A DNA stretch of 64,000 bases from Lentisphaeraceae bacterium (GCA_004555175.1 SFJE01000003.1:1914-65913); one strand, 5' to 3'. Positions 21,640 to 63,405 are shown, counted from the first letter of the stretch. Notes: a model not told the origin generated them from the sequence alone. Numbers and translations: made by a program.

Positions 21640-21800
21640 CCGGCCGTAAACTAATAAGACCCCGTCTTATTGGCAACAAGACCCCGTCTTATTGGCAACA
21701 AGACGGGGCCTTAATAATTCCCGCCGCCCCGGGGGGAAGTTTTCGCCCGGCGTGCGGGAAGTTACGCCAGCCCGAGGCACAGTTTTCCGGCGGGAGCGGT
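21640..21800. repeat. Partial copy of the promoter-proximal element with 22-mer hairpin units (AATAAGACCCCGTCTTATTGGCAAC x2 inverted, x1 direct) and a GAGCGGTTAGT module, upstream of tolB
   Basis: Shares the unit sequence with 42509-42606 and 59523-59619. TTTGCTACAAT sits at 21905. Confidence 0.6.
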
Positions 21801-33460: not shown

Positions 33461-33581
33461 ATCAGCTCGCTACGCCCGCGATGACAGAGGACGAAAAGAA
33501 GATGACAGAGGCCCCGGTCAATATCCGTCGCGGCACGCGTCCTGTCATCTGTTCTCTCCACTCGCCACACGCGAGCACACC
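33461..33581. repeat. Variant repeat element: GATGACAGAG x2, core variant CCGTCGCGGCACGCG, and CTGTCATCTG arm
   Basis: Direct reading. It lies in the mreB-mreC intergenic region. Confidence 0.55.
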
Positions 33582-34679: not shown

Positions 34680-34940
34680 AGCGGTTGGCTGCTAGCCGCG
34701 CTAAGGTGCTCGCTATCGCTCGCGTGAAGGCCGAGCGAAGCGAAGGCGCTATGCCAAAACGGTGAAGGCTGAGGCGCGCTAGGCCGGATCATCCGGAGAT
34801 TCCGGAGATTCCGGAGATTCCGGAGGCGGCCCGCCAATGGGGGACAGGGCGCGTTGGCCGGGGTGGAGCGCCCTGCGCTCCCGGGGTACAGGGCGAGCAA
34901 GTCCGAGCGAAGCGAAGGAGCTATGTCATCGCCCTGCCTA
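34680..34940. repeat. Composite repeat: module GAGCGAAGCGAAGG[C/A]GCTATG x2 flanking nonamer array CCGGAGATT x3 and block GGAGGCGGCCCGCCAATGGGGGACAGGG
   Basis: Near-identical modules to 17925-18110. Confidence 0.7.
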
Positions 34941-38454: not shown

Positions 38455-38507
38455 CTCCGTCGCGGAACGCGCGCTAACCGCTAGCAGCTAACCGCTATTT
38501 TTGCGGC
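38345..38507. repeat. Complete empty composite element: heptamers CAGCGGACAGCGGACAGCC+GTTAGCTGCTAGC, reverse core variant ACGCGTGCCGCGACGG, ~70-bp spacer, core CCGTCGCGGAACGCG (38467-38481), heptamers GCTAACCGCTAGCAGCTAACCGCTA
   Basis: Direct reading. Confidence 0.7.
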
Positions 38508-39292
38508 GCTTGCGCCACGAGGATAAGGGTGGTGGGGATAGCCTCACACTCGTCGAGGGCGGCGAGCCAATCATCGGAGGCGTAGGCGGGGTTGGGAACG
38601 GCGGGGGGCTCTTCCAGGCGCAGAAGGGTAAGGCCGGCGGCGCGGAAGGCGTTGAACCAGGCGCTGACGGGATAGGCGCGCGAGGCGATGGGCGCGTTGG
38701 TGCCGTCGGGCTGCTCGCGGATGTCATCGAGGGGGTGGAAGTAGTTGACCAGGAGGCGGCCCCAGGTGGAGGTGCCGTCGTCGTTCTCGGCCTCCACCCA
38801 TTCGCCATTATAGACGGGGTGGACGGTGGAGAGGACGAAGGTGCCGCCGGGCTTGAGCCAGCGGGCCACGCGCTTGACGAGACCAAAGGGGTCGTCAACG
38901 AACTCGAACGCGTGCGAAGAGGTGATGAGGTCGTAACTCGCCTCGGGGGCGGAGAAGGCCTCGATGGCGCCCTGGCGGAAGTCGATGGAGAGTCCGGCCT
39001 GGGCGGCATCGGCACGGGCGTAGGCGAGCTGCGCTTCGGAGATATCCAGGGCGGTGCAGAGCAGGCCGCGGCGAGCGAGGTAGAGGGAGTTTTGGCCTTC
39101 ACCGCAGCCGAGCTCGAGGGCGGTCATGCCGGGCGAGAGGGGGGGCAAAAGACGGAGTTCGCGATCGCCGGGCAGGAGCGGACCGTAGTGGAAGTCCGAG
39201 CTATCGATGCGCGTGATGGCGCGGTAGTCGGCGGCGATGGCATTCCAGTAGCGGCGCTGGGGCTCGCTGTGCAGGTGGCTGTCATCGGCCAT
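38495..39292 (-). CDS. Class I SAM-dependent methyltransferase
   Basis: Motif I LELGCGEGQN with a post-I acidic residue. 265 aa. Confidence 0.75.
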   Translation of the reverse strand: MADDSHLHSEPQRRYWNAIAADYRAITRIDSSDFHYGPLLPGDRELRLLPPLSPGMTALELGCGEGQNSLYLARRGLLCTALDISEAQLAYARADAAQAGLSIDFRQGAIEAFSAPEASYDLITSSHAFEFVDDPFGLVKRVARWLKPGGTFVLSTVHPVYNGEWVEAENDDGTSTWGRLLVNYFHPLDDIREQPDGTNAPIASRAYPVSAWFNAFRAAGLTLLRLEEPPAVPNPAYASDDWLAALDECEAIPTTLILVAQAPQK

Positions 39293-42410: not shown

Positions 42411-42660
42411 GGTGCTCATTGTCATACTCCTTTCACATTAGACAGTTTCAACCGTTCAAGCACCGCCATCATATCCCACTTCCGCGCTGGGTTAACTCGC
42501 TTCCCGAGCGACTTGAATGAATAAGGCCCCGTCTTGTTGCAAATAAGACGGGGCCTTGTTGCGAATAAGACGGGGCCTTATTACCAATAAGACGGGGCCT
42601 TATTAGTTGCGCTCCGCCGAGCGGTTAGTTCTCTCCGCGCCGCGTGATAATCCGCGCCGC
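42411..42660. repeat. ~250-bp promoter-proximal element, copy 1 (about 90% identical to 59417-59670) with a 22-mer array at 42509-42606 (one inverted plus three direct AATAAGACGGGGCCTTRTTRNN units)
   Basis: Direct alignment of the two loci. TTTGCTACAAT at ~42706 sits upstream of aroK/B. Confidence 0.75.
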
Positions 42661-45936: not shown

Positions 45937-46092
45937 AGCAGACAGCCCGCGTTCCGCGACGGGCAGATGTTTCCTCCCAATTATGTGCTTCTCACGGCTC
46001 AGACGGGCCTTCCACCTTAAGCGCCAGCACGATGGCATAGCTCCTTCGCTAACGCTACGGACTTGTCAGCTGTCGGCTGTCAGCTGTTGGCT
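45937..46092. repeat. Composite repeat: reverse core CGCGTTCCGCGACGG (45948-45962), spacer, module CGATGGCATAGCTCCTTCGCTAACGCTACGGACTTG (inverted copy of 51965-52000), and heptamers TCAGCTGTCGGCTGTCAGCTGTTGGCT
   Basis: Direct reading. It overlaps the first 15 codons of the annotated decarboxylase ORF. Confidence 0.7.
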
Positions 46093-46107
46093 ATCATCTC
46101 CTCCCCT

Positions 46108-48300
46108 ATGGACTGCCAGACGATCTTCTACCTGACTGATGCGCCGGAGGCGACGCGTGAGGTGTTGCAGGATTTGGAGTATGGGCTTTCGGATGCCTTT
46201 CAGGCCTTTTGCCGGGAGCACTTTACCTTCGAGGATCCGCTCGACTACCCAGAGTTGCGGCTGATTGCCGTGCGCACGCCCGCGGAGTTGGATGCCGCGC
46301 TCTTCCACGCGCCCGATGAGCGGCACTTTCTCTCGGCCGAAGGGGCGGGGTGCTGTCTCTTTTTGCTGGATGACGAGCTGGGCGGCCGGCCGGTCTTTGA
46401 CTATCAGCTCGATGGCTTGCCACTGCCGAAGTGGTTCCTGACATACTTTCCGGCCATTCCCAAGGTGCTGGTGACGCGGCCCGGGCACGCGAAGCTGCAC
46501 TTGCCTTCACGGCGGTGGGCGCAGAAGCCCTTCTCGGTGCTGACGAACCCGAAGGCGAATCGCGAGCGGCTGGACCATCTCTTTGCCTCCTTTTGGCTGC
46601 CGCGCTTCTGGGACGCGCTTCGGCAGTATGTGCGCCGGCGCGCGGGGACGAGTTGGCACACCCCCGGCCACAACAACGGCAACGCCTTCGAGCGCTCGCC
46701 CTTCCTGCACGGCTTTCACGACGCCTTCTCTTCGATGATCTTCCGCTCGGATCTCTCGGTGTCGGTGGAGTCTCTGGGCGACCTCTCCGACCCGGAGGGC
46801 CACACGCCGCTCTCCGAGTCGCAGCGGCTCACTTCGGAGATCTTCGGTACGGCGCAGAGCTGCTACGTCACCAACGGCACGAGCACCTCCAACAAGGCGA
46901 TGTTGATGACGCTCCTGCGCCCGGGCGAAGTGGTGCTGCTCGACCGCAACTGCCACAAGTCGGTCCACCATGCGGTGGTGATGGCCGGGGCGGTGCCGCG
47001 GTATTTGCCGGCGCACTACAACGAGCGGCTGGGGGTGTGGGGGCCGATTGCGCTGGCGGATTTGCGCGCGGAGTTGGCTGCGGCGGCAGCGTTACCCGAG
47101 GCGCAGAAGCCCAAGATGCTCGTCATCACCACCTGCACCTATGAGGGCATTCTCTATCCGGTCTGGGAGATTGGCCGCTTGTGCGAGGAGGCCGGACTCC
47201 TCTTCTATGCCGACGAAGCCTGGGCGCCCTACCTGACCTTCCACCCCTACTACACGCGCACGCTCGAGGACGGCCGCCAGGTGCGCTTCAACGCGGTCTC
47301 GGAGGTGGGCGGGGCGCACTTTGCCGTGCAGTCCACCCACAAGGCGCTTTCGGCCTTCTCGCAGGCCTCGATGATCCACGTCTCCAATCGCTTCAAGGCG
47401 CTCTTGGAGAGCGACGCGGGCAAGCCCTTCCGTTGGCTGCGCCGCCGCTTCCACCTCCACGGTCACGGTTCCTACGAAAAGTTCTCGCACGACCTCCACG
47501 AGGTTCTGCGCTACTGGCACTCCACTTCGCCCCACTATCCCACCCTCGCCACGCTCGATATGGCCGGCATTCAGATGCGCCTCGAGGGGCTGGCCCTCAT
47601 CGAGCAGCGCCTGCACTGGGTGGCCGCCTTCCAAAAGCGCGTCTCGGACCTGGTGGGCCGCCCCATTCACGAGTGTTTCGCCGGCGTGCGCGCCATTGCG
47701 GGCGACGACCCGAGCTGGAAGCGCGAGGGCTACTTCCACGACCCGCTCAAGATGGTCCTCTGCTTCCGAACCGCGCGCGACTGCGAGGCCTTCCGCAAGC
47801 TCCTCCACCAGAGCCACATTCAGTGGGAGAAGGCCTCGCCCGTCACCATCCTCTTCCTCGTGACCGTCGGGACCGTGCGCGAGCACTTTGAGTACCTCTT
47901 CCGCTGCATTCGCCAGATGCAGAGCGCCATCGGCCTGAGCGAGGAGGCGCCGGACCCCGCGCAGCACCTGCGCCAGGCCATCGCCGGCCAGCCGGTCGTC
48001 CTCCCGCGCGATGCCGCGCTCTGCGATGGCGAGCTGCTGCCGTTGGAATCCTGCGAGGGGCGCATCTGCTCGCAGTTGCTGGTCCCCTATCCGCCCGGCA
48101 TCCCCGTCTTTATCCCCGGATTGCGCATCACCCGGCCAATGATTGACCTCATCTTGGAGGTTATCCGCCGCGAGGGCCCCGATGCCGTTCACGGCCTCTT
48201 CATCCGCGGCAAGAAGCCCTTCGTCGAAGTGCTGAACCGGGATGAGGAGGCGCGCGTGACCCGCTGCGCGGGCGACAGCTTTCCAAAGGAGAACCCATGA
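46108..48300 (+). CDS. Orn/Lys/Arg decarboxylase family (fold-type I PLP, major domain OKR_DC_1)
   Basis: PLP-lysine motif VQSTHKALSAFS and a wing-like N-terminal domain. ATG 46108 lies downstream of the repeat-derived 5' extension. Confidence 0.8.
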   Translation: MDCQTIFYLTDAPEATREVLQDLEYGLSDAFQAFCREHFTFEDPLDYPELRLIAVRTPAELDAALFHAPDERHFLSAEGAGCCLFLLDDELGGRPVFDYQLDGLPLPKWFLTYFPAIPKVLVTRPGHAKLHLPSRRWAQKPFSVLTNPKANRERLDHLFASFWLPRFWDALRQYVRRRAGTSWHTPGHNNGNAFERSPFLHGFHDAFSSMIFRSDLSVSVESLGDLSDPEGHTPLSESQRLTSEIFGTAQSCYVTNGTSTSNKAMLMTLLRPGEVVLLDRNCHKSVHHAVVMAGAVPRYLPAHYNERLGVWGPIALADLRAELAAAAALPEAQKPKMLVITTCTYEGILYPVWEIGRLCEEAGLLFYADEAWAPYLTFHPYYTRTLEDGRQVRFNAVSEVGGAHFAVQSTHKALSAFSQASMIHVSNRFKALLESDAGKPFRWLRRRFHLHGHGSYEKFSHDLHEVLRYWHSTSPHYPTLATLDMAGIQMRLEGLALIEQRLHWVAAFQKRVSDLVGRPIHECFAGVRAIAGDDPSWKREGYFHDPLKMVLCFRTARDCEAFRKLLHQSHIQWEKASPVTILFLVTVGTVREHFEYLFRCIRQMQSAIGLSEEAPDPAQHLRQAIAGQPVVLPRDAALCDGELLPLESCEGRICSQLLVPYPPGIPVFIPGLRITRPMIDLILEVIRREGPDAVHGLFIRGKKPFVEVLNRDEEARVTRCAGDSFPKENP

Positions 48301-49001
48301 CCTCAACTTCTGCCCCAGGCTCCACCCCCCTCTCCACCACGCTCAACCGCGAATACGCCCTGCGGCTGCTCGGCGTGGCCGTGCTCTTCATCGGCCTGAG
48401 CGGCTGGTTCCTCTATGATGGTGCGCGCGGCTACCCCGCCGAAAATGCCGCCGTCGCCCCCATCGCCGCCGAGCTCGCCCAGCAGCCCAAGACCCCGCGC
48501 GATTGGGTCAACACCGCCAAGACCGGCACCGTACCGCTCATCGATGCCTTCCAGGCGCGCGGCGTCAAGGCCCCCGGCAAGTTCGTCGACGGCTTCACCT
48601 CCTGGGTCCGCGCCGACGACCCGAAGGCCGACGACCCGAAGGCCGCCGCCGCCCTCCTCGCCCAGCCGGTCCATAGCGAGGACGACATCCGCACGCAGTT
48701 CATCTCCGCCGGGATTGGCCTCCTGGCCGCGGCCGGGCTTCTGGCGCTGCTGGCGCTACGTTGGGCCACGACCCTGCGGCTGGAGGGCGAAACCCTGGTT
48801 CAGCGGGTGGCCGGGCGCGAGCGCCGTTTCGCCTTGGCCGACCTGCACGCGCTCGATGACCGCGAGTGGGCCAAGCGCGGCATCGCCCGTGCCCGCTTCG
48901 CTGCCGGCACCGTCACACTCGATGCCTGGCACCACGCCGGCATCCGCGAAATCCACGCCCGCTTGGTCGAACTCCCCACTGCCGCCGGAGGTCAGCAATG
49001 A
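48297..49001 (+). CDS. Hypothetical membrane protein (two predicted TM helices)
   Basis: The start overlaps the decarboxylase stop (ATGA), implying translational coupling. GC3 bias is present. Confidence 0.5.
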   Translation: MTSTSAPGSTPLSTTLNREYALRLLGVAVLFIGLSGWFLYDGARGYPAENAAVAPIAAELAQQPKTPRDWVNTAKTGTVPLIDAFQARGVKAPGKFVDGFTSWVRADDPKADDPKAAAALLAQPVHSEDDIRTQFISAGIGLLAAAGLLALLALRWATTLRLEGETLVQRVAGRERRFALADLHALDDREWAKRGIARARFAAGTVTLDAWHHAGIREIHARLVELPTAAGGQQ

Positions 49002-50200
49002 AGCCTTCCACCCTGCCGCCCGAACTCTGCGAGGAGATCCGCACGCGCGTCTTCGCCCCGGGCTTTATCCGTCTGACCCAGTCGCTCGTGCGCGAGGGCA
49101 AGTCCTTCCGTATTTCCCTGCGCCCGGTGCGCCTGAAGGGCGAAACCTTTCTCCAGGCCGAGATGGTCGATGACGGCCGCACCCAGGTTCGCAACCTCAC
49201 CGAGGCCGCCGCCCGCAAGGGGCTCGACGAAATCCTCGCCCAGAGCGGCAAGCGCGACCTGCACCTCGTCTCCCGCGAGGGCGACCTCCATATCCGCGTT
49301 ACCAAGAAGGAGCGCGCGCTCGTCGCCCGCGGCAAGGCCAAGACCGCCCCCGAGGCACCCGAAGCCGCCCCCGAGCCCGAGGCGAACCACGACCGTATCA
49401 AGAAGCAGCCACTGAATAGCTTTGACTCGGCCGCGCTCCTGCGCGTGTTGGGTCTGGCCGATGAGCGTGGCGCCCTCAAGCCCTCGATGCGCGGAAAGTA
49501 CGACCAGGTCAACGCCTTGCTGCGCGCCGTCGAGCCCCTGTTGCCCCCCGAAGCGCCCGCGCGCTTCACCATTGTCGATTGCGGTTGCAGCAAGGCCTAC
49601 CTCACCCTCGCCCTCCACGCCTACCTCACCCAGGGCAAGGGCTGGCCGTGCGTCAGCACCCTGGGCATCGACCGCAATGCCGGCGTCATTGCCTCCGCCC
49701 AGAAGATGGCCACCACCCTCGGCCTGGCCCAGGAGGTTGAGTTCCGCGCCTGTGCCATTGCCGAGGCCGACTTCCCTGAGGCCCCCAACCTAGTGATGAG
49801 CTTACACGCCTGCGACACGGCTACCGACGACGCCCTCATCGCCGCCGTTCGCGCCAAGGCCCAGAGCCTCCTCTGCGTTCCCTGCTGCCAGCACGAGCTC
49901 CACCACGCCCTCGACAATGGCGGCGGAGCCATGCGCGCGCTCCTGCGCCACGGCATCCTCCGCGAGCGCCTGGCCGACCTGCTCACCGACACCTTCCGCG
50001 CCCAGGTCCTGCGCATCTGCGGCTACCGCGCCCGCGTGATGGAGTTTGTCTCGCAAGAGGCCACCGGGCGCAACATCCTCATCCGCGCCGAGCGCGGCCT
50101 GCGCCCGGGCCTAGGCGAGGCCGAAGCCGAATACCGCGCCCTATGCGACCTTTGGCAGGTGGAGCCGTATATTGGGCGAGCATTACTCGCGAGCGAGTAA
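48998..50200 (+). CDS. SAM-dependent methyltransferase (Methyltransf_32/METTL25-like)
   Basis: Motif I IVDCGCSKAYLTLAL, motif LHACDTATD, and a CC.HEL cysteine cluster. The start overlaps the upstream stop (ATGA). Confidence 0.7.
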   Translation: MKPSTLPPELCEEIRTRVFAPGFIRLTQSLVREGKSFRISLRPVRLKGETFLQAEMVDDGRTQVRNLTEAAARKGLDEILAQSGKRDLHLVSREGDLHIRVTKKERALVARGKAKTAPEAPEAAPEPEANHDRIKKQPLNSFDSAALLRVLGLADERGALKPSMRGKYDQVNALLRAVEPLLPPEAPARFTIVDCGCSKAYLTLALHAYLTQGKGWPCVSTLGIDRNAGVIASAQKMATTLGLAQEVEFRACAIAEADFPEAPNLVMSLHACDTATDDALIAAVRAKAQSLLCVPCCQHELHHALDNGGGAMRALLRHGILRERLADLLTDTFRAQVLRICGYRARVMEFVSQEATGRNILIRAERGLRPGLGEAEAEYRALCDLWQVEPYIGRALLASE

Positions 50201-50212
50201 TGCTCGCCCAAT
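50171..50212 (+). terminator. Perfect 19-bp inverted repeat hairpin (ATTGGGCGAGCATTACTCGC/GCGAGTAATGCTCGCCCAAT) containing the methyltransferase stop codon
   Basis: Direct reading. No obvious U-run follows, so it may act as a structure rather than a classical terminator. Confidence 0.5.
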
Positions 50213-50340
50213 AGCTGTTAGCTGTTAGCGGCTAGCTGTTAGCGCGCGTTCCGCGACGGATAGGCTGGAGGCGGCCCCTCACACGCCCCTTACCCGAGTT
50301 TGCCCGTCGCGGAACGCGGCTGTCCGCTGTCGGCTTGAAG
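50205..50340. repeat. Complete empty composite element: heptamers AGCTGTTAGCTGTTAGCGGCTAGCTGTTAGCG, reverse core (50245-50259), 44-bp spacer, core (50304-50318), heptamers GCTGTCCGCTGTCGGCT
   Basis: Direct reading. Confidence 0.75.
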
Positions 50341-50356
50341 CGGCGCTAGCCGCTTC

Positions 50357-51928
50357 TCACGCCAGGCGCAGGAAGATGACCTTGTGGACGGCGCGGGAGA
50401 TGGCGGTGTAGAGGGCCGGGCCGTTCCAGGCGGGGTCGTTTTCGGTAACGTCAAGCAAGATGAGGATGGGCGCCTCGAGGCCCTTAAACTTGCGGTAGGT
50501 GAAGTAGCGCAGACCGGGGAAGGCGGCGAGGAGGGGGTCGAGGTCCATCTTGGGGAGGACATGGGCGCCGAGGAGGAGGATGTCGCGCACCGGGATGGCT
50601 TGGACCTCGGTGAGCTGGCACAGGAGCGCGGCGAGGTGCTCGCGGAGCTTGGCGCGGGTGGGGAAGCGATAGTGCTCGCAGGGTTCGCCAGGTGGGGCGC
50701 TGGGGAGGATGCGCGTGGCTTCGCCGGCGTAGGGCTTGAGGAGGTCGAAGACGGTGCGGGTGTTGCGGCAGTTGGTGGTGAGCTTCGCCTCGGGCCAAGG
50801 GAAGGCAGGGATGGCCTCGAGGTTGCGCTGGAAGATGTTCTGCGCCGGGTCGTAGAAGACGATGAAGCCGCTGCGCTCGGGCACCAGGGCGGAGACGACT
50901 TGACAAAGCGCCGGGGAGAAGTCCTGCCCCTCGTCAACAATGACGCAATCGTAGGGCGAGCGCTCGGCGAAGGCCTTGGCCACGGGCACGGCATCGCGCG
51001 CGAGGGTGTGCCAGAATTCGCGCGAGCCATCATCCTGACGCCCGAGCAACTCGCAAAGCAAATCGTAGATGGCCACGGCACGGATGCGTGGCTCGGGGGC
51101 CGTGACATTGCGCAGGTGCTCGGCGAGGAGCAGATTGAAGCAGAGCAGAAGGACGCGCTTGCCCTCGGCGGCCAACTGGGCGGCGCGGCGCAGGGCCAGG
51201 AGCGTCTTGCCCGAGCCGGCGCAGCCGCGCACGCGCAGGCGGGGGAACTGCGAGAAGGCATCGAAGGCGACCGCTTGGTCCTGCGTCAGCCGAGCGAGAC
51301 TGGCATCGCTCAGGAGCCGGCGCTGACTCCAGCCCGGGCGGTAGGCCACGCGCGGGGCGAAGAGGGTGCGCAGGCGCACGCGCAGCGCTTCGCCGGCCTC
51401 GATGGAGAGTGGGGCGGGGGGCTGGAAGATGGTGGCGCGTGGGGAGGCGAAGAGGCGGCAGAAGGCCGCCTCGGGGTGCGGCAGGTCCTCAGCATAGAGG
51501 GTGATGCCCTGAAGGTCAATCGGCTCGTGCGCCGGCCGCAGGGAGAAGGGGAGCCAGACGGCGTGGCAAAGGGGCAGCGGGAAGGGGGCCACCGCGAGTT
51601 CCCGGCAGAGAATGCGCAGCAGGGCGTGGGCGTTGCGCGTGGCCTGTTCGGCGGGGGAAGCGCGCATCTTGCGGCCATTTTGGAACCACCCTTCGCGGGT
51701 GCAGAGCACCTCGCCGCCCTTCACCTCCAGCACCAAGAGTCCGTGTTGCGGGTGGAAGCAGAGGAAGTCCACTTCGCCCTCGCCCGCCGGCAGCCCCTCC
51801 TCGAGGTCCGAGTACGCCAGCGACCACCAGACGCTCCACCCCTCGGGCAAGTTCAGCTCCAGCGCCCGGAAGACGTAGCGCTCGGCCTGCGGCCCGCTAC
51901 CGAAGAAGTTAGGGATGAGTTCTGCCAT
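50357..51928 (-). CDS. NERD-domain nuclease fused to a UvrD/PcrA-like SF1 helicase ATPase
   Basis: NERD motif GEVDFLCF..GLLVLEVKGG, Walker A GCAGSGKT, motif II VIVDEGQDF, and a UvrD_C-like tail. 523 aa. Confidence 0.75.
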   Translation of the reverse strand: MAELIPNFFGSGPQAERYVFRALELNLPEGWSVWWSLAYSDLEEGLPAGEGEVDFLCFHPQHGLLVLEVKGGEVLCTREGWFQNGRKMRASPAEQATRNAHALLRILCRELAVAPFPLPLCHAVWLPFSLRPAHEPIDLQGITLYAEDLPHPEAAFCRLFASPRATIFQPPAPLSIEAGEALRVRLRTLFAPRVAYRPGWSQRRLLSDASLARLTQDQAVAFDAFSQFPRLRVRGCAGSGKTLLALRRAAQLAAEGKRVLLLCFNLLLAEHLRNVTAPEPRIRAVAIYDLLCELLGRQDDGSREFWHTLARDAVPVAKAFAERSPYDCVIVDEGQDFSPALCQVVSALVPERSGFIVFYDPAQNIFQRNLEAIPAFPWPEAKLTTNCRNTRTVFDLLKPYAGEATRILPSAPPGEPCEHYRFPTRAKLREHLAALLCQLTEVQAIPVRDILLLGAHVLPKMDLDPLLAAFPGLRYFTYRKFKGLEAPILILLDVTENDPAWNGPALYTAISRAVHKVIFLRLA

Positions 51929-51929
51929 A

Positions 51930-52112
51930 GCGTTATAGCCGACAGCGGACAGCCGACAGCGGACAAGTCCGTAGCGTTAGCGAAGGAGCTATGCCATCGA
52001 GCTGGCGCTCGATGTGGAAGGCCCGTCTGAGCCGTGAAGGGCACTCTTGCCAAGCCAACAGCCCCTCCGTCGCGGAACGCGGCTGTCCGCTGTCCGCTGT
52101 CGGCTGTCCGCT
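51930..52112. repeat. Composite repeat: heptamers GCCGACAGCGGACAGCCGACAGCGGACAAG, module GTAGCGTTAGCGAAGGAGCTATGCCATCG, spacer, core (52067-52081), heptamers GCTGTCCGCTGTCCGCTGTCGGCTGTCCGC
   Basis: Direct reading. It lies immediately upstream (5') of the NERD-helicase gene. Confidence 0.75.
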
Positions 52113-52166: not shown

Positions 52167-53078
52167 CTACACCTTCAGCGTGCCGCGGAAGTCGTTGATG
52201 TCGGCAATGCCGTGTGCGTCGAGCCAGGCCTCCATCCCTTCCAGGACGTGGAGGGGGGCGAGGGGGTCGATGAAGGTGGCGGTGCCGACGGCGACGGCCG
52301 TTGCGCCTACCAGGATGAAGTCGAGCGCGTCCTTGGCCGTGAAGATGCCGCCCATCGCTAGGAGGGGCACCTCGGCCACCTGCGCGGCCTCCCACACATG
52401 CTTGAGGGCGATGGGGTGGATGCCCGCGCCCGAGAGGCCGCCAACGCGGTTGGCGAGCACCGGGCGGCGCGTCTCTAGGTCCACGGCCATCGCCGGCAGG
52501 GTGTTAATGAGGGAGATTGCATTAGCCCCGGCCTCCTGGGCGGCCTTGACGAAGGGGCGCACGTCGGGCACATTGGGCGCGAGCTTGGGGAGGATGGGGA
52601 GCGTGGTGGCTTCGCGCACGGCCTTGACCACCTCGGTAAAGGTCTCCACGCGCGTGCCGAAGCTTGCCCCGCCCTCCTTGACATTGGGGCAGGAGACATT
52701 GAGCTCCAGACCGACCACGCCCGGCACACCGGTCAGCCGCGCGGCCACCTGGGCGTATTCCTCCACGCTGGTGCCCCAGATATTGACAATGGTCGGTACC
52801 TGGCGCTCGACGAGGAAGGGCATATCCTCGGCGATAAAGGCCTCGACGCCCGGCCCCTGCAGCCCGATGGCGTTCATCATCCCGCCGGGCACCTCGGTGT
52901 GGCGCGGCAAGGGGTTCCCCGGCCACGGGCACGCGCGGATTCCCTTGACCGTCACCGCGCCCAGACGCGAGATGTCGAAGAGCCCGGCATATTCCTGCCC
53001 ATACCCAAAGGTCCCCGAGGCCACGGTGACGGGATTCTTCATTTCAATCCCGCCGAGATTGACTGCCATCTTTGCCAT
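52167..53078 (-). CDS. pyrD: Dihydroorotate dehydrogenase (class 1-type catalytic subunit)
   Basis: Motifs NPV..ASGTFGYG and an FMN-binding TIM-barrel signature. The start is 53078 or 53069. Confidence 0.9.
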   Translation of the reverse strand: MAKMAVNLGGIEMKNPVTVASGTFGYGQEYAGLFDISRLGAVTVKGIRACPWPGNPLPRHTEVPGGMMNAIGLQGPGVEAFIAEDMPFLVERQVPTIVNIWGTSVEEYAQVAARLTGVPGVVGLELNVSCPNVKEGGASFGTRVETFTEVVKAVREATTLPILPKLAPNVPDVRPFVKAAQEAGANAISLINTLPAMAVDLETRRPVLANRVGGLSGAGIHPIALKHVWEAAQVAEVPLLAMGGIFTAKDALDFILVGATAVAVGTATFIDPLAPLHVLEGMEAWLDAHGIADINDFRGTLKV

Positions 53079-53097
53079 TGCTGCGCCTCCTGCTTAA

Positions 53098-53589
53098 TTA
53101 GCCGCGCGCGAAGCGGTCGAGGACGCCGTTGACGAAGGCTCCGGCCTCTTCGTTGGAGAAGTACTTGGCCAACTCGATGGCCTCGTTGATGACCACCGGG
53201 GCGGGGGTCTTCAGCGTGCGAATCTCATAGGCGGCCAGGCGCAACACGCAGCGCTCGATCACGCCCAGGCGGTCGAAGCTCCAGTGCTCGCAGAAGGGGA
53301 CCAGCTGCGCGTCGAGCGCATCGAGCTGGGCGAGGGTGCCGCGGACGAGCTGCTCGGTGAACTCACGCACGCCGGTGGAAGCCAGGCGCTCGCCCGGCTG
53401 GAGGGCGCGCTCCATCTCGTCAAGGTCGTCATCCTCCTTGCCGGCGGCCTCCTGGCGGCAGCTCCACTGCTGTTCCCAAAAGTGGGCGAGGATCATCTCG
53501 GGCTTGGCAAAGGGGTTCAGGTCGGCCTGGACAATCATCTGCAAGGCCCACTCGCGGGCTTTGTGGCGGCGGTTTGTCGGCGGCTTCAT
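53098..53589 (-). CDS. nusB: Transcription antitermination factor NusB
   Basis: ATG 53589 (MKPPTNRRHKAREWALQ..) within the longer ORF. NusB helical signature. Located immediately downstream of ribH as usual. Confidence 0.85.
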   Translation of the reverse strand: MKPPTNRRHKAREWALQMIVQADLNPFAKPEMILAHFWEQQWSCRQEAAGKEDDDLDEMERALQPGERLASTGVREFTEQLVRGTLAQLDALDAQLVPFCEHWSFDRLGVIERCVLRLAAYEIRTLKTPAPVVINEAIELAKYFSNEEAGAFVNGVLDRFARG

Positions 53590-53590
53590 C

Positions 53591-54085
53591 TCACTTCTCC
53601 TCTTGGGGCAGGCTCTTGCCGAGCAAGTTAGCCATCTCGATAGCGGCGCAGGTGGTGTCGTAGCCCTTATTGCCGGCCTTGGAGCCCGAGCGCTCGAGCG
53701 CCTGGTCGAGCGAGTGGGCGCAGACGATGCCATTGAGCACCGGGATGCCGCTCTCGAGCCCCAGCTGCGCCAGCGCGCGCGCCACGGAGGTGTTAATCAG
53801 CATCGCGTGGTCGGTGGCGCCATCAATCACCGCGCCCAAGGCCACCACCGCGTCCGGCCGCCCGGCAAAAATCGGCCGCGCGAGGAGCGCCTTGACGGCC
53901 AGGGGGATTTCATTGGCGCCGGGCACGCGCACCACGGCCAGGTCCTTCTCCACATCCAGCCCGTGCCGCCGGGCCGCATCCAATGCCCCCTGCAGCAACT
54001 GCTCGGTAAAGACCGAATTAAAGCGGCTGACCACCACTGCCAAGCGCAGACCCTGCGCCGAGAGGTTGCCCGAATACTCTTTCAT
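53591..54085 (-). CDS. ribH: 6,7-dimethyl-8-ribityllumazine synthase
   Basis: Motif LAVVVSRFN, 164 aa. Confidence 0.9.
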   Translation of the reverse strand: MKEYSGNLSAQGLRLAVVVSRFNSVFTEQLLQGALDAARRHGLDVEKDLAVVRVPGANEIPLAVKALLARPIFAGRPDAVVALGAVIDGATDHAMLINTSVARALAQLGLESGIPVLNGIVCAHSLDQALERSGSKAGNKGYDTTCAAIEMANLLGKSLPQEEK

Positions 54086-54121
54086 TGCTCTTCGTCCTTT
54101 CTGCTAAATCCGTGACCCTGC

Positions 54122-55342
54122 TTAGAGCAGGTGGCCCATCTTGGTCTTCTTGGTTTCCAGGTAGTGCGCGTTGAAGGGGCCGGCGTGGGCCACAATCGGC
54201 ACGCGCTCGACGATCTCCAGCCCGTGACCGGCCAGGCCAACGACCTTCTGCGGGTTGTTGGTGAGCAGGCGCAGCCGCCGCAGCCCCAGCGCGCTCAAAA
54301 TCTGCGCCCCGATGCCGTAGTCGCGCAGGTCCGGGGCAAAGCCCAGGCGGACATTCGCCTCCACCGTGTCGCACCCCTGCTCCTGCAGGCGGTAGGCGTG
54401 GAGCTTATTGGCCAGACCAATCCCCCGCCCCTCCTGGCGCATATAGAGCAAACACCCGCGCCCCTCGTCGGCAATCTGCTGCATCGCCGCGTGCAGCTGC
54501 CAACCGCAGTCGCACCGCGCGCTCCCAAAGACATCCCCCGTCAAACACTCGCTGTGAACGCGCACCAGCGGTGCGGGACCCTCGGTGCCGGTCAGGTCGC
54601 CCATCGTCAGGGCCAAGTGTTCGAGCCCATCGAGCGCGCTGCGGAACATCGTCAGGCGGAAGTGGCCAAAGGCCGTCGGCAAATCCACGCTCTCCACCCG
54701 CTCGACCAGCTGCTCGTGCGCCTTGCGGTAAGCAATCAGCTGCTCCACCGAACAGAGTTTCAGCCCGTGCTTACGGGCAAAGGGCACCAGGTCCGGCAGC
54801 CGCGCCATCGTGCCATCTTCCTTGGTGATCTCGCAGCAAATACCCGCCGGCTTGAAGCCCGCCAAGCGCGCCAGATCCACCGTCGCCTCCGTATGGCCCG
54901 CGCGCACCAGCACGCCCCCCTCCCGTGCGCGGAGCGGGAAGGTGTGGCCCGGCGAGACCCAGTCCGCCGCCGTGCTCTGCCCATCAACAAGCAGCCGCAC
55001 CGCCTTGGCGCGATCCTCCGCGGAAATTCCCGTCGTCACCCCCAAATGCGCCGCCCCATCAATACTCAGCGTAAAGGCCGTGGCAAAGGCATCGCCCCGG
55101 TTCACGCTCGGGGCCAAGGCAATCCCCAGCCGGTCCAACAACTCCCCCGCGCACGGCGCGCACAACAGCCCGCGCGCCTCGCGAATGCAAAAGTTCACCG
55201 CTTCGGCCGTCACGCACTCAGCGGGCATCACCAGGTCGCCCTCGTTCTCCCGGTTCGCGTCGTCAGTAATCACCACAAAGCGCCCGGCCTTCAATTCCGC
55301 CAGACACGCCTCAATGCTGTCGAAGACAATCTCCTCAGCCAT
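54122..55342 (-). CDS. ribBA: Bifunctional DHBP synthase / GTP cyclohydrolase II
   Basis: RibB motifs (VITDDANRENEGDLV) and RibA motifs (CxCxxxxC zinc site CDCGWQ, RLLTNNP). ATG 55342 (MAEEIV..) is preferred inside the ORF that opens at 55402, because the riboswitch lies upstream of it. Confidence 0.9.
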   Translation of the reverse strand: MAEEIVFDSIEACLAELKAGRFVVITDDANRENEGDLVMPAECVTAEAVNFCIREARGLLCAPCAGELLDRLGIALAPSVNRGDAFATAFTLSIDGAAHLGVTTGISAEDRAKAVRLLVDGQSTAADWVSPGHTFPLRAREGGVLVRAGHTEATVDLARLAGFKPAGICCEITKEDGTMARLPDLVPFARKHGLKLCSVEQLIAYRKAHEQLVERVESVDLPTAFGHFRLTMFRSALDGLEHLALTMGDLTGTEGPAPLVRVHSECLTGDVFGSARCDCGWQLHAAMQQIADEGRGCLLYMRQEGRGIGLANKLHAYRLQEQGCDTVEANVRLGFAPDLRDYGIGAQILSALGLRRLRLLTNNPQKVVGLAGHGLEIVERVPIVAHAGPFNAHYLETKKTKMGHLL

Positions 55343-55375
55343 CGCTCGCTTCCTCTCCCTCGCTGCCGAGGGTGG

Positions 55376-55500
55376 CCTTTCGCACTTCCATCCGGACTTC
55401 ACCGTCGGCCGCGGACTTCCACCGCGTCAAGCGCACCACCCGGCGCGCGTCGTGGGCTATACCACCGGTAGGGCCAAGGCCCTCCCTGCACGAAAGCGCG
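55376..55500 (-). ncRNA. FMN riboswitch (RFN element) leader of ribBA-ribH-nusB
   Basis: The minus-strand sequence matches RFN conserved blocks: AGGGCCTTGGCCCTACCGGTGGTATAGCCCACGA...GGTGGAAGTCCGCGGCCGACGGTGAAGTCCGGATGGAAG. It ends ~30 nt before the ribBA SD. Confidence 0.75.
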
Positions 55501-56051: not shown

Positions 56052-57761
56052 ATGAACGCATACGTAGTAGCTCCGAGCTGTGATGCGGCAGGAACGCAGG
56101 ATGACTGGCTCCCGAAAATCGAAAAATTTCAGATTGCAATCAACGGGTATTCAGCAGACGAAGAAGATGGGAAGAAGCAGATTGGCCATCGTTTTGCAGC
56201 AATAAAAGATGGTGATCTCGTTATCATTGCCAACGGGAAGAATTCTTCTAAGGCGTGTTACTTTGCTGGTTTTGCTGAGCCCAAGGGTGATGCGGCCCTT
56301 GCTAAGCAGATTGGAGCTACTCAGGTTAGACGATTGCGTTCGTTCACGTCATTGAAGGGTGAGAAAATCCCGTTCTCTCTGGAGTGTAAACATGGTAACA
56401 CCCCCGGCCCGTGGATAGATGCATGTTACATGTTGGACGATAAGAAGCCGGCGGATAGGAACGTTATTGATACGGTGCTTTCGATTATTGCAAAATCCCA
56501 AGGAGGTCGTATGATCGATGAAATGATTAAGCTGCTGGAGAAGGCAAAGCAGGTAGTATTTACTGGTGCGCCTGGAACTGGCAAGACTTATCTTGCACGA
56601 CAGATTGCCCAGAAGATGATCTTAGGGAAGATAGTCGATGACGAGAGTAAATTGACTCTGGAAGAAAAGACGATGCTTGAGGAGCAGATGGGCTTTGTAC
56701 AGTTTCATCCGTCTTACGACTATACCGATTTCGTCGAGGGGTTACGGCCAAACAAATCGCCTAACGGCGATACGCTTGGTTTTGAACGGCGAGATGGTGC
56801 GTTTAAGAAATTCTGTAGCCGTGCAGCACAGAAGGCCGACAGTAATTTTGATAGGGTTTACGAACGGTTCATTTCTGATATTGATGAGCAGTACAGCGAG
56901 GACAACCCGCTGGAACTTAAAACGGACGGTCACAACGTTTCATTTTACGTATACCCTAACTCCAATGAAAGTTTAAATCTTCTAACCGGACCGAGCAAGA
57001 AGAAGCAGGGAAGTCTAACGCCGGACAAGATCAAGACCTTCTTGACAGATACGCCCTATAAGTGGTGGTCAGGTTATTATCGCGGCGTGTTAAATTATCT
57101 CAAGCGTAAATATGGTTTGTCGTCTAGCGCGCGGAAGACTGAGAAGCCGTATGTATTCATAATTGACGAAATCAACCGGGGTGATATTTCCAAGATATTC
57201 GGAGAGCTGTTCTTCGCGATGGATAAAGGCTACCGTGGCAAGGAAGCTTCGCGAGTGAAGACGCAATACGACAACCTGATCGAGAAGGGCGATGTTTTCT
57301 ATGGAGGGTTCTACGTGCCAGATAACGTGTACATCATCGGCACGATGAATGATATCGACCGCAATGTCGAATCGATGGACTTCGCGATTCGCCGTCGTTT
57401 TACCTGGAAGGAGATTGAGCCCTCGGCTCGTTTTGATGCCATGTGGTCTGACCTAGACGAAATTGCCGGAACAGTCAAAGAAGAGGCACGGCGACGGATG
57501 AACACCATGAATACAGTTATTGCGGAGACGAAAAACGGGCTGGGGCCTGCTTATCAGATTGGACCGTCGTATTTCCGAGAGTTGGCGACTTATCATGATG
57601 ACTCCGATGGAGGCTTTGCATCTTTGTGGGAGAATCACCTCAAACCGCTGATCAAGGAGTACCTGCGCGGATTTCCGAATGCCGACGGTATCATCGACAA
57701 GATTCACGGGGCATATAAAAATCCGCTGCAGGCGGAAGGAGATGCCAAAGAGGCGGAATGA
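56052..57761 (+). CDS. mcrB: McrB-like GTP-specific AAA+ restriction subunit with an uncharacterised ~170-aa N-terminal (putative modified-DNA-reading) domain
   Basis: Walker A GAPGTGKTY, motifs FHPSYDYTDFVEG, IIDEINRGDISKIFGELF and IIGTMNDIDR..DFAIRRRF. A ~150-aa insertion lies between the McrB signature and Walker B. Confidence 0.85.
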   Translation: MNAYVVAPSCDAAGTQDDWLPKIEKFQIAINGYSADEEDGKKQIGHRFAAIKDGDLVIIANGKNSSKACYFAGFAEPKGDAALAKQIGATQVRRLRSFTSLKGEKIPFSLECKHGNTPGPWIDACYMLDDKKPADRNVIDTVLSIIAKSQGGRMIDEMIKLLEKAKQVVFTGAPGTGKTYLARQIAQKMILGKIVDDESKLTLEEKTMLEEQMGFVQFHPSYDYTDFVEGLRPNKSPNGDTLGFERRDGAFKKFCSRAAQKADSNFDRVYERFISDIDEQYSEDNPLELKTDGHNVSFYVYPNSNESLNLLTGPSKKKQGSLTPDKIKTFLTDTPYKWWSGYYRGVLNYLKRKYGLSSSARKTEKPYVFIIDEINRGDISKIFGELFFAMDKGYRGKEASRVKTQYDNLIEKGDVFYGGFYVPDNVYIIGTMNDIDRNVESMDFAIRRRFTWKEIEPSARFDAMWSDLDEIAGTVKEEARRRMNTMNTVIAETKNGLGPAYQIGPSYFRELATYHDDSDGGFASLWENHLKPLIKEYLRGFPNADGIIDKIHGAYKNPLQAEGDAKEAE

Positions 57762-59083
57762 AATCGTCGCTGATAAAGCTCAAGGATAACGGAGACGTGA
57801 AAATCTCCGATGACGTCGCGATGAAATTGCGTCGTTATGCTGGGCTTCGTCTTGACGTATTGTGTGGCGAGAATCCTTCGTTGTTGATTTTCCCTAATTG
57901 CCTTGGGGATAATGGAGATAGGATCAATGAAGGACGGTTGTTCTCTTTGAATGGCGACTGTCTGTCGGTTGGCAACATCGTAGGGTTCTGGGGTGTTGAT
58001 GACGTGAATGTTCGCGTCCATTCCCGTTTCGACATGGATGATCGCCAGTATTTCTTCCACTACATGCTTCAGCGCATCTGCAAGGTGAATGTCATCGATA
58101 TGCAGACGCTGCCGGATGAAGAGGATTTGTGGGACTTCCTTATCTATTTGTTCCCGATGGCGCTTAAGGGCGCGATGCGTCAGGGCATCTTCCGGGCTTA
58201 TCGAGTGTTTAGATACGATGATGATCAGGTGAGGGGGGCGATTGACGTTGCCCGGTACATTCGGCATGATATTCCCTTTTCAGGACGTGTTTCGTATTCA
58301 ACGCGTGAGCATACTGCAGACAATCATGTGATTCAGCTTGTTCGTCATGCGGTAGAATTTATCCGTCGCCGCGCACCGGGTATTCTGTCTGTTGACGGAG
58401 AAATGCGTCAGGCTGTGGACACCATTGTGCAGCTGACGCCAGATTATTCGGAAAAGTCGCGGCAAAGGATTATGGCGGCGAATTTGCGGCCTGTGCGCCA
58501 TCCATATTACTCAGCCTATACAGGACTGCAGCGCATTTGCCTTCAGATACTTCGCCATGAAAAGATTGCGTTTGGGGAGAACGACGGACGCATTTGCGGC
58601 ATAGTGTTTGACGCCGCTTGGCTTTGGGAGGAATACCTGAATTCATTATTTGAGGGCGACAAGGGCTTTACTGGTGTGGTGCACCCGATGAATAAGACCT
58701 GCCAGAATCCGGTCTACTTCTTTGAGCCGAAAAGGGGGCCACATTATCCTGATTTCTATGATGAGAAGCGCCGCGTGGTTATGGATGCCAAGTATAAGAG
58801 TCTTGACAACGGCATTCCTCGTGAGGATTTATTTCAGTTGATTTCCTATATTCATGTAATGGCATACCGATCAGGCGTGTTATTATATCCGTCGCACGCT
58901 ACAGGATTTCATGATGAGGGGCGGCTGAAAGGATTAGGAGGTCGCATTGGCTGGGCTTCGCTCATGGTGCCAAAGGCGGCGGATTGCGTGGAGTTCAGGA
59001 ATTTCGAGGCTGCCATCCGCAATAATGAGGGGGAATTTTTAAGATTGCTAGGGGAGCATGATTACGATGACAACCATTCTTGA
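57758..59083 (+). CDS. mcrC: McrC-like PD-(D/E)xK nuclease subunit
   Basis: Overlaps the mcrB stop by 4 nt. C-terminal PD-(D/E)xK core (..D...VMDAKYK). 441 aa. Confidence 0.8.
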   Translation: MKSSLIKLKDNGDVKISDDVAMKLRRYAGLRLDVLCGENPSLLIFPNCLGDNGDRINEGRLFSLNGDCLSVGNIVGFWGVDDVNVRVHSRFDMDDRQYFFHYMLQRICKVNVIDMQTLPDEEDLWDFLIYLFPMALKGAMRQGIFRAYRVFRYDDDQVRGAIDVARYIRHDIPFSGRVSYSTREHTADNHVIQLVRHAVEFIRRRAPGILSVDGEMRQAVDTIVQLTPDYSEKSRQRIMAANLRPVRHPYYSAYTGLQRICLQILRHEKIAFGENDGRICGIVFDAAWLWEEYLNSLFEGDKGFTGVVHPMNKTCQNPVYFFEPKRGPHYPDFYDEKRRVVMDAKYKSLDNGIPREDLFQLISYIHVMAYRSGVLLYPSHATGFHDEGRLKGLGGRIGWASLMVPKAADCVEFRNFEAAIRNNEGEFLRLLGEHDYDDNHS

Positions 59084-59430: not shown

Positions 59431-59670
59431 CTCCTTTCACGTTAGACAGTTTCAACCGCTCAAGCGCTGCCATTGTATCACACCTCCGCGCTGGGTTAAC
59501 TCGCTTCCCGGGCGACTTGAATGAATAAGGCCCCGTCTTGTTGCCAATAAGACGGGGTCTTGTTGCGAATAAGACGGGGTCTTGTTGCCAATAAGACGGG
59601 GTCTTATTAGTTGCGCTCCGCCGAGCGGTTAGTTCTCTCCGCGGGGCGTGATAATCCGCGCCGCCCTTTC
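59417..59670. repeat. ~250-bp promoter-proximal element, copy 2, with a 22-mer array at 59523-59619 (AATAAGACGGGGTCTTGTTGCC units)
   Basis: Aligns with 42411-42660. The McrBC cassette abuts its 5' end. Confidence 0.75.
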
Positions 59671-59785
59671 ATGGCCCACAGGCCCCCGGGAAATCTGGAA
59701 ACGCCCCGCGTCATCTGTCACCTCTCATCTCTCATCTGTCATCTGTCATCTTACATTATGATATACTTGCGCGCACAGTTTTTCC

Positions 59786-62962: not shown

Positions 62963-63039
62963 CGGAGCGTAGCGCAGCCTGGTAGCGCGTTTGGTTCGGG
63001 ACCAAAAGGTCGTGGGTTCAAATCCCACCGCTCCGACCA
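62963..63039 (+). tRNA. tRNA-Pro (anticodon CGG)
   Basis: Manual cloverleaf: acceptor CGGAGCG/CGCTCCG, anticodon loop TTCGGGA, T-loop TTCAAAT, encoded CCA. Confidence 0.9.
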
Positions 63040-63053
63040 TCTAAAGCCCAATG

Positions 63054-63137
63054 CACCCGTGGTGGAATTGGCAGACACGTAAGATTCAGGTTCTTATGCT
63101 GCGAGGCGTGTGGGTTCGAGTCCCACCGGGTGCACCA
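63054..63137 (+). tRNA. tRNA-Leu (anticodon CAG), long variable arm
   Basis: Manual cloverleaf: acceptor GCACCCG/CGGGTGC, anticodon stem TAAGA/TCTTA with loop TTCAGGT, T-loop TTCGAGT, CCA. Confidence 0.9.
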
Positions 63138-63147
63138 TACTTCCTAG

Positions 63148-63222
63148 GCCCCCATCGTCTATCGGCTAGGACACAAGGTTCTCATCCTTGGAAGAGCGGT
63201 CCGACTCCGCTTGGGGGTGCCA
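63148..63222 (+). tRNA. tRNA-Glu (anticodon CTC), copy 1
   Basis: Acceptor GCCCCCA/TGGGGGT, anticodon loop TTCTCAT, encoded CCA. Confidence 0.85.
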
Positions 63223-63238
63223 ACTGGGGAGGTCCTAC

Positions 63239-63313
63239 GCCCCCATCGTCTATCGGCTAGGACACAAGGTTCTCATCCTTGGAAGAGCGGTCCGACTCCG
63301 CTTGGGGGTGCCA
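63239..63313 (+). tRNA. tRNA-Glu (anticodon CTC), copy 2
   Basis: Identical 75-nt sequence to copy 1, after a 16-nt spacer. Confidence 0.85.
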
Positions 63314-63315
63314 TC

Positions 63316-63405
63316 GGAGAGGTGGCAGAGCCTGGTTGAATGCACATGACTCGAAATCATGCGTGCCGCAAGGTACCGGGGGTTCGAATCCCTCCCTCTC
63401 CGCCA
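63316..63405 (+). tRNA. tRNA-Ser (anticodon CGA), long variable arm
   Basis: Acceptor GGAGAGG/CCTCTCC, anticodon stem CATGA/TCATG with loop CTCGAAA, T-loop TTCGAAT, CCA. Confidence 0.85.

Follow-up and report, generated by a model that had tools for sequence, protein, structure and literature searches.

A NERD nuclease-helicase gene behind pyrD in a Lentisphaeraceae bacterium, probably resident, lies between copies of a dispersed hairpin element

Does a gene that joins a nuclease to a helicase, and that stands between two repeat units, belong to a mobile defence locus or to the resident chromosome? The question is raised by a stretch of 64,000 nucleotides from a Lentisphaeraceae bacterium (GCA_004555175.1 SFJE01000003.1:1914-65913; the whole stretch is called the window below, and positions are counted from its first letter). 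It contains a gene that we name NERDhel (50357-51928, minus strand, ATG start), an open reading frame (ORF) of 523 amino acids that combines a NERD domain with a helicase of superfamily 1 (SF1) and has a palindromic repeat element in the spacer on either side. An earlier note on this DNA had seen here a candidate mobile or recombination-prone locus. This was not borne out, as NERDhel keeps a fixed position in relatives that lack the repeats and the element occurs at about 11 sites of the window. NERDhel is not a mobile defence cassette, because it is fixed behind a housekeeping operon and because the repeats are copies of a hairpin scattered over the genome. The overall reading that we favour, and consider likely, is a resident nuclease-helicase, probably with a constitutive role in maintenance or surveillance, flanked by secondary, genome-wide elements that resemble the intervening sequences (IVS) of rRNA genes.

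The part of the operon upstream of NERDhel, on the same strand (52167-55497, minus), begins with a flavin mononucleotide (FMN) riboswitch (55376-55497; Rfam RF00050, 79 bits), which heads ribBA (54122-55342), ribH (53591-54085), nusB (53098-53589), pyrD (52167-53078) and NERDhel; the genes were assigned from gene calls, Pfam and synteny. NERDhel would be under flavin control if no internal promoter follows the riboswitch. For comparison 80 loci were kept, including 19 loci from related genomes (L003-L021). These relatives are animal-gut bacteria of the Planctomycetes-Verrucomicrobia-Chlamydiae (PVC) group, gut metagenome-assembled genomes (MAGs) labelled Ca. Spyradenecus, Kiritimatiellae or Lentisphaeraceae, and NCBI places the genus in Lentisphaerota. 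The window itself comes from a metagenome contig of 159 kb. The order ribBA-ribH-nusB-pyrD-NERDhel on one strand was found in 19 of the 19 related loci, with the gaps that ribBA was unmatched in L017 and L018 and that L016 begins inside pyrD. Two more metagenome contigs, L084 and L106, have the same order (L085 is the same contig as L009). Across L003-L021 the identity ranged from 51 to 95% for NERDhel and from 80 to 99% for pyrD.

The junction between pyrD and NERDhel is mostly tight in these relatives. The pyrD stop codon overlaps the NERDhel start codon (TGATG) in L017, L018, L020 and L021, and in seven further genomes the gap measures 1-17 nt. A spacer of 124-238 nt occurs in the immediate relatives of the window only, where it is filled by repeat elements. 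The building blocks of these elements, a conserved 15-nt sequence (the 15-mer) and arrays of heptamers, are frequent only in the window and in L003-L005; in L009-L018 NERDhel is present, there is no 15-mer and there are at most scattered heptamer arrays. The earlier note had named, as what would speak against its own proposal, a housekeeping repair helicase universally conserved at a syntenic position without repeat flanks. This is largely what we found, with the gene behind pyrD in every carrying locus of the clade, mostly free of repeats; the departures are one genome without the gene (L083, see below) and a housekeeping repair role which we can only propose.

NERDhel is under purifying selection and has a host-like composition. 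The ratio of nonsynonymous to synonymous substitution (dN/dS) was 0.10-0.16 (about 0.13), like that of nusB and the methyltransferase gene, and dS was similar to that of the neighbouring genes. The GC content was 0.67-0.69 and that of third codon positions (GC3) 0.89, compared with a GC3 of 0.54-0.55 in a McrBC island of the window. Gene order and sequence comparison thus show NERDhel to be a chromosomal gene that is resident in a PVC-group gut clade and inherited vertically.

The two repeat units that the earlier note had placed at 50205-50340, downstream of the gene, and at 51930-52112, upstream of it, are real and their coordinates were right within a few bases. The upstream element (51935-52112) lies in the pyrD-NERDhel spacer and is composed of inverted arms of GACAGCN-type heptamers, a core of about 100 nt and the 15-mer (52067-52081). 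Its arms (51937-51965 and 52084-52112) are 29 nt each and 90% complementary, its edge is 8 nt from the NERDhel ATG, and its RNA, taken on the mRNA strand, folds with -110 kcal/mol (z -7.0 relative to shuffles). The downstream element (50212-50335) lies in the spacer between NERDhel and a convergent methyltransferase gene. It has two heptamer arrays, a pair of 15-mers and a core of 44 nt, in the order TTAGC-type array (50212-50243), 15-mer (50245-50259), core, 15-mer (50304-50318) and GCTGTCN array (50317-50335). The paired 15-mers form a perfect inverted repeat of 15 nt, CGCGTTCCGCGACGG / CCGTCGCGGAACGCG; the RNA of the element folds with about -81 kcal/mol (z about -5.3), and its edge is about 20 nt from the NERDhel stop codon. 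Directly 3' of this stop and on the same strand there is an 8-bp GC hairpin, GAAGCGGC-nnnn-GCCGCTTC (50337-50356), with no T-run, which is kept in L003 and L005, and a perfect 21-nt palindrome (50170-50213; an inverted repeat with 100% complementarity) lies across the stop codon of the convergent methyltransferase gene. The two elements also share a direct repeat of 32 nt across NERDhel (50304-50335 and 52067-52098, 97% identical), the 28-mer of which gave 2 matches when 0 were expected (100 shuffles).

Are these elements particular to NERDhel? In the 64-kb window Tandem Repeats Finder and a period-7 scan picked out about 11 spacers with heptamer arrays (at 667/781, 1384/1513, 12331/12829, 18200, about 33470-33560, 38358/38472, 39279, 46064, 50212/50317, 51935/52080 and 59715), so that about a fifth of its spacers, some 50 in all, hold an element. 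The 15-mer occurs 10 times in the window with two mismatches or fewer, as against 0.76 expected, and the repeats are therefore not specific to NERDhel. The common anatomy is a heptamer array, the 15-mer, a variable core, the reverse-complemented 15-mer and an inverted heptamer array, the 15-mer being usual but not constant. Arms measure 27-48 nt and are 77-93% complementary (for example 29 nt and 90%, 48 nt and 88%, 27 nt and 93%, 40 nt and 80%). Heptamer types vary from element to element (GACAGCN, GTTAGCN, CTATCGC, ATCTGTC), and the arms within one element usually pair. An inverted sister copy of the upstream element (45940-46096), with a core 93% identical over 103 nt, precedes an Orn/Lys/Arg decarboxylase gene, and the 50-nt left end of the downstream element is 98% identical to 12332-12381, the terminus of an element that carries an ORF. 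In the whole window Rfam, at gathering thresholds, recognised only the FMN riboswitch and five tRNAs, and the repeat elements were unmatched. Both repeats that flank NERDhel are members of one family of palindromic elements, which is intergenic and lineage-specific. As a separate observation, the ORF at 805-1458 extends about 75 nt into the repeat element 1384-1531, which may have replaced or extended the 3' end of that ORF.

The elements are not static. In L003, L004 and L005 the same two spacers hold other cores or other arm types. When the downstream element was compared with the spacers of L003 and L004, its left part resembled L003 and its right part L004, with the junction at the conserved 15-mer: the gene-proximal arm and the 15-mer match L003, the core and the distal arm L004. 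The element is chimeric because its two arms differ in type, and since the chimera is joined at the 15-mer, recombination between elements does occur. The differing cores and arms of L003-L005 together with this chimera thus indicate that elements turn over and recombine at fixed spots while NERDhel stays. They would have entered pre-existing spacers after NERDhel was in place, without mobilising it.

This exchange between elements is also one of the points in favour of the view that the nuclease-helicase is carried by a mobile or recombination-prone cassette with the two units as its ends; the others are the 32-nt direct repeat that brackets the gene and the closeness of the repeats to it, with a distance of 8 nt to its start codon and of about 20 nt to its stop codon. 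We regard such a cassette as highly improbable. NERDhel occupies one position in every carrying locus of the clade, most of them repeat-free, its dS is close to that of its neighbours and its composition is that of the host. No transposase, integrase or recombinase was found among the called genes within 10 kb on either side. Elements likewise stand on both sides of other genes or blocks of the window (805-1458, 38495-39292 and 46063-50200), and chance alone would give roughly two doubly flanked genes when about 11 of about 50 spacers hold an element. Finally, in L083, which has no NERDhel, the site is taken by a terminator and bears no scar of a repeat. Searches outside the chromosome fit this picture: phage proteins gave one weak match to NERDhel (27% identity) and PHROGs a generic helicase family only, while plasmid matches were at most 31% identical. 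When viral contigs were scanned for exact copies of the 15-mer, each matching contig had a single one and no paired element structure, a result that we judged uninformative. We also considered that NERDhel might be the enzyme that mobilises the repeats, and rejected it because orthologues sit in genomes without repeats. The locus calls for caution, as a domain fusion that looks like defence and flanking repeats are not sufficient to call a mobile defence locus; comparative synteny shows that the gene is long resident, and the repeats are a genome-wide background.

What, then, are the elements? One member of the family is full-size (12331-12852): its arms of 48 nt, made of heptamers and the 15-mer and 88% complementary, enclose a gene of 121 amino acids (12387-12752, minus strand) of the 23S_rRNA_IVP/four-helix-bundle family (Pfam PF05635, 1e-37). 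The ORF occurs in this copy only; the cores beside NERDhel (44 nt and about 100 nt) have none, and a search of the small cores for remnants of it found none, the termini alone being shared. This anatomy recalls the 23S rRNA IVS of Coxiella and Leptospira, in which terminal inverted repeats form a long stem and the arms contain tandem heptamers. In Coxiella the terminal stem measures 28 bp and the tandem heptamers read GACAGAT; this IVS, which contains an S23p ORF, is cut out by RNase III (PMC4990558). GACAGCN arrays are present in the window, as is an array of ATCTGTC, the reverse complement of GACAGAT, at 59715-59751; one of the window copies likewise carries a PF05635 ORF, although most are ORF-less. 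A further difference is location, since IVS sit in 23S rRNA (helix 25 or 45) whereas the window elements all lie in spacers between protein genes, with no rRNA in the window. Because of this location, and because most copies have no ORF, we read the elements by analogy as IVS-like hairpin elements and miniature derivatives of them, with putative RNase III cleavage. Also comparable are the TAACTGA heptamer direct repeats described in spacers of Beggiatoaceae, Cyanobacteria and Bacteroidetes (MacGregor 2015, PMC4679880). They too are confined to spacers and often end a few nucleotides 5' of a start codon, and the local heptamers NGCTAAC and TAACNGC are similar; they are, however, single direct arrays of one heptamer, whereas the window has inverted pairs of several heptamers around a core and the 15-mer.

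The association of heptamer arms with a four-helix-bundle gene was also seen outside this bacterium. In a small, uncontrolled sample of seven PF05635 genes that included the window copy, six were bracketed by inverted arrays of 7-8-nt tandem repeats, with a unit that differs per genome (window 12331-12852; L124 413-932; L126 363-815; L129 311-832; L130 252-826; L117 432-888). The flanked genes elsewhere came from a Rhizobiales MAG (GGCAGCN), a cyanobacterium (8-mers of the GTGAGATG type), a planctomycete (AGGGTAT type) and two more contigs (AGGGGYT and TATAGTT types), and the seventh gene, from an Acidobacteriota MAG, had weak flanking arrays. The sample suggests that a heptamer-armed hairpin goes with the four-helix-bundle gene family in general, the rRNA IVS being the known case. 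The repeats beside NERDhel may even be ORF-less members of an undescribed cassette class that spans phyla, a tentative idea to which we give less than even weight. Array-bracketed PF05635 genes were not found described outside rRNA intervening sequences, and no account was found of four-helix-bundle cassettes with dispersed ORF-less derivatives, which is an absence from the literature searched and not a proof of novelty. If the association were general, rRNA IVS would be the rRNA-resident minority of a mobile family of heptamer-armed hairpins, which would also seed mRNA spacers with processing sites of the RNase III type, and heptamer repeats of the cyanobacterial type could be footprints of it. 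The flanking elements link dispersed intergenic heptamer arrays to the four-helix-bundle genes of rRNA IVS and offer a testable origin for both; the element family is a more novel lead than the NERDhel locus.

We then looked at a possible effect of the hairpins on the expression of NERDhel. The upstream element is probably transcribed together with pyrD, and by analogy with rRNA IVS its stem of about 29 bp is probably a processing site of the RNase III type or an insulating site; processing there would uncouple the expression of NERDhel from that of pyrD. A scan for sigma-70 and terminator consensus sequences found nothing in either of the spacers that flank NERDhel. A stronger version of this idea makes both elements functional regulators, the upstream hairpin a transcriptional or translational insulator or an RNase III site that sets NERDhel expression and the downstream one, for the convergent genes, a terminator or stabiliser. 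In favour are the high stability of the stems, as the folding energies given above indicate, the position of the upstream element, whose end is 8 nt from the ATG at a place where stop and start codons are coupled in relatives, and the fact that four of four sister genomes retain some element in both spacers while its type changes. Besides, the arrays of Beggiatoaceae that end a few nucleotides before start codons have been proposed as post-transcriptional signals (PMC4679880). The same elements nevertheless adjoin many unrelated genes, most orthologues do without them and no Rfam family matches, and we consider a regulatory function of the pair rather unlikely.

The protein itself was examined by sequence and by structure prediction. 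The NERD domain (Pfam PF08378) covers amino acids 12-107 (51608-51895, minus strand; E 4e-11, 43.8 bits for a cutoff of 22.1) and carries D54, E68 and K70, the PD-(D/E)xK residues, which are invariant in an alignment of 27 homologues. In the second part AAA_19 matched amino acids 226-365 (30 bits, cutoff 25.1), UvrD-helicase PF00580 scored 25.7 bits over profile positions 209-254 of 271 only, and UvrD_C_2 stayed under its cutoff (25.9 bits, cutoff 27.4); no NCBIfam equivalog came near its own cutoff. SF1 motifs I-VI are present, and in the same alignment the cores of GCAGSGKT, DEGQDF, FYDPxQN, NCRN, YxKxKGxE and SRA are invariant, with C236, S239, G334 and Y359 as the individual residues that are not. 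Thus in the Walker A motif GCAGSGKT (amino acids 235-242, 51203-51226, minus strand) G235, A237, G238, G240, K241 and T242 are invariant and S239 nearly so; C236 is not listed as conserved, being V in P0016 and G or A in two other homologues. In Walker B/motif II, DEGQDF (amino acids 332-337, 50918-50935, minus strand), D332, E333, Q335, D336 and F337 are invariant and G334 nearly so.

The AlphaFold2 (AF2) model of NERDhel, with a predicted local confidence (pLDDT) of 91, shows an N-terminal alpha/beta nuclease module (amino acids 1 to about 200, 51329-51928, minus strand), a long linker helix and a compact ATPase core of two RecA-like domains (amino acids about 205-523, 50360-51316, minus strand). 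This ATPase part has only about 320 amino acids and none of the 1B/2B insertions of the UvrD/PcrA type. With the full-length model Foldseek gave human SLFN11/SLFN14 as the best match (E 2e-18), followed by the cores of Upf1, Ighmbp2, UvrD and PcrA. The N-terminal 206 amino acids alone (pLDDT 93) had no fold match at E<0.01; weak matches to NucS/EndoMS, Card1 and McrC nucleases were all at E >= 0.015. A profile search of the PDB matched the ATPase part only (HelD 8e-14, PcrA 1e-7), the P-loop region of SLFN5/SLFN11 also being matched. NERDhel is, as predicted from these motifs and models, a single polypeptide that joins a NERD PD-(D/E)xK nuclease to a minimal SF1 ATPase with conserved catalytic motifs. 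The fusion, the 523 amino acids and the two motifs GCAGSGKT and DEGQDF that the earlier note had pointed out hold, and 'UvrD-like' applies in the broad SF1 sense only.

Several characterised proteins resemble NERDhel in part. UvrD/PcrA/Rep and HelD share the SF1 motifs, and their RecA cores superpose with that of NERDhel; yet UvrD/PcrA/Rep are proteins of about 650-750 amino acids with full UvrD-helicase and UvrD_C domains and 1B/2B, compared with a core of about 320 amino acids and a PF00580 match over 46 positions here. SLFN11/SLFN14, of Schlafen group III, also place an N-terminal nuclease before a compact SF1 helicase (template modelling score, TM, 0.5), but their nuclease has the Schlafen core fold and not the NERD PD-(D/E)xK fold, and the Pfam profile SLFN-g3_helicase gave 16.5 bits for a cutoff of 24; the resemblance is architectural. 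Among the profiles of PADLOC the best match was RTasNERD-Hel (UG34; E 3.3e-33, 113.6 bits, amino acids 1-407), a reverse-transcriptase-associated NERD-helicase (Mestre et al. 2022, PMC9226505) with the same domain order, NERD N-terminal and helicase C-terminal. The match covers positions 1-379 of 519 only of a profile for which PADLOC has no curated cutoff, and no reverse transcriptase (UG/Abi) lies beside NERDhel, whose neighbours are pyrD and Methyltransf_32, or in the related loci (80 loci). The 'NERD+UvrD' family C3a187 matched at 8e-23, and further weak matches were to Nhi, AbiO and GajB. Nhi of Staphylococcus, which degrades phage replication intermediates, similarly has a nuclease and an SF1 helicase in one polypeptide; its profile (PDLC02372) matched amino acids 232-369 only, the P-loop region (24.5 bits, E 2.4e-6), and failed to match over the full length, and Nhi genes are accessory whereas NERDhel is syntenic across the clade. 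Of the defence-typical architecture claimed by the earlier note, the fusion is real and the best PADLOC matches are candidate defence families, while the Nhi match is weak and confined to the helicase core.

NERDhel belongs, by sequence comparison, to a known, very large and uncharacterised NERD-helicase family. A word-indexed search returned 5447 proteins at E<=1e-5, and an exhaustive profile search 4111 clusters at 50% identity and E<=1e-30, mostly of 520-570 amino acids; profile positions 1-513 were matched in most of the top 150 homologues. Homologues are full-length and collinear, covering 97-100% of the query, and where named they are just 'NERD domain-containing protein'. No experimentally characterised member was found in the literature. 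Within this family the lineage of NERDhel is unusual in its fixed, operon-like place behind pyrD. Clustering of the neighbours in 80 loci revealed no conserved partner gene beyond lineage-local synteny. Such local neighbours are a WYL-WCX regulator gene upstream of the homologue in L029 and L042 (Victivallales/Lentisphaeria) and a DUF2779 protein gene downstream of it in L053, L066 and L075 (Dehalococcoidia), and both proteins may be lineage-specific functional partners.

Architecture, conservation and genomic stability were observed here; how the enzyme works and what it is for, we infer. The substrate onto which NERDhel loads is most likely single-stranded or branched nucleic acid, and ATP-driven translocation would be followed by cutting at the NERD site. 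The function of the protein is probably constitutive genome maintenance or surveillance, for example the degradation of aberrant or foreign replication intermediates in a RecBCD-like or Nhi-like manner, and it is probably not a shufflable defence-island gene.

Some points tell against a resident gene of this kind. NERDhel has diverged faster than the genes around it, with identities of 51-64% compared with 80-90%, and the family is patchy over many phyla. L083, in which pyrD is 86% identical, has no NERDhel and its operon ends in an intrinsic terminator (L083 4912-5072), while L063 holds at the same place (3899-4900) a truncated NERDhel of 337 amino acids (P0041); the absence and the truncation mean that some lineages at least can do without the gene. 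The 80 loci kept include no record of a cultured Kiritimatiella or Pontiella. Rare deletion could in principle be supported by the direct repeat of 32 nt on the two sides of NERDhel, and the co-transcription of pyrD and NERDhel and the RNase III processing are presumed. To these are added the candidate defence families RTasNERD-Hel (3e-33) and C3a187 (8e-23) as best PADLOC matches, and a distant homologue on an Azospirillum plasmid beside DarT and a DUF1998-associated helicase.

These last two points, like the faster divergence, the patchy spread and the absence in L083, would suit a dedicated single-gene system against phages or plasmids, of the Nhi or Hna type, that is stably kept at one site and degrades phage replication intermediates. 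NERD domains recur in defence islands and in tested systems according to the literature, and Nhi and Hna are established immune enzymes, nuclease-helicases triggered through phage single-stranded DNA-binding protein (SSB) or replication complexes. NERDhel could then be an immune enzyme wired into a riboswitch-headed housekeeping operon. We see this, the main rival of our reading, as possible but on the whole doubtful. The Nhi match is marginal, no reverse transcriptase or other partner adjoins the gene in any locus, and in this clade the gene is coupled to pyrD in translation, with an overlap of stop and start codons that immune genes do not usually show. In other phyla, housekeeping genes predominate among the neighbours of homologues with 31-39% identity (GH127, EPSP synthase, Rnf, rhomboid, acetate kinase), and synteny is also kept within several other lineages. 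The top Pfam families among the neighbours of homologues were metabolic, with no enrichment of defence genes. When 130 neighbours from 60 loci were searched with PADLOC, each match listed concerned a single neighbour, and the 25 families shown come down to about 7 distinct systems. Constitutive maintenance or surveillance remains the reading that we prefer for NERDhel. As the family is very large, has no characterised member and is stably chromosomal in several lineages, a single biochemical and genetic study would annotate thousands of genes, and would show whether these enzymes act in repair, immunity or both.

Other features of the window deserve mention. A McrB (569 amino acids) and McrC (441 amino acids) pair at 56052-59083, just upstream of the FMN riboswitch and 4 kb from NERDhel, has a GC content of 0.47-0.50 and a GC3 of 0.54-0.55, compared with about 0.85 elsewhere, and is missing in the sister genomes L004 and L005; because of this low GC and GC3 and of its absence there, the island looks like a recent insertion. 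Three separate sites (21656-21704, 42520-42605 and 59535-59605) hold a second dispersed repeat family, in which a 22-nt unit with a small hairpin (AAGACCCCGTCTTATTGGCAAC and variants) is repeated in tandem. Tandem arrays of 9-nt units were found at 17948-17997 (CCGGATAAT, 5.6 copies) and at 34792-34825 (TCCGGAGAT, 3.8 copies). Five tRNA genes (Pro, Leu, Glu, Glu, Ser) lie at 62963-63405, and the tandem duplicate of tRNA-Glu(CTC) among them is the 91-nt repeat reported by Tandem Repeats Finder.

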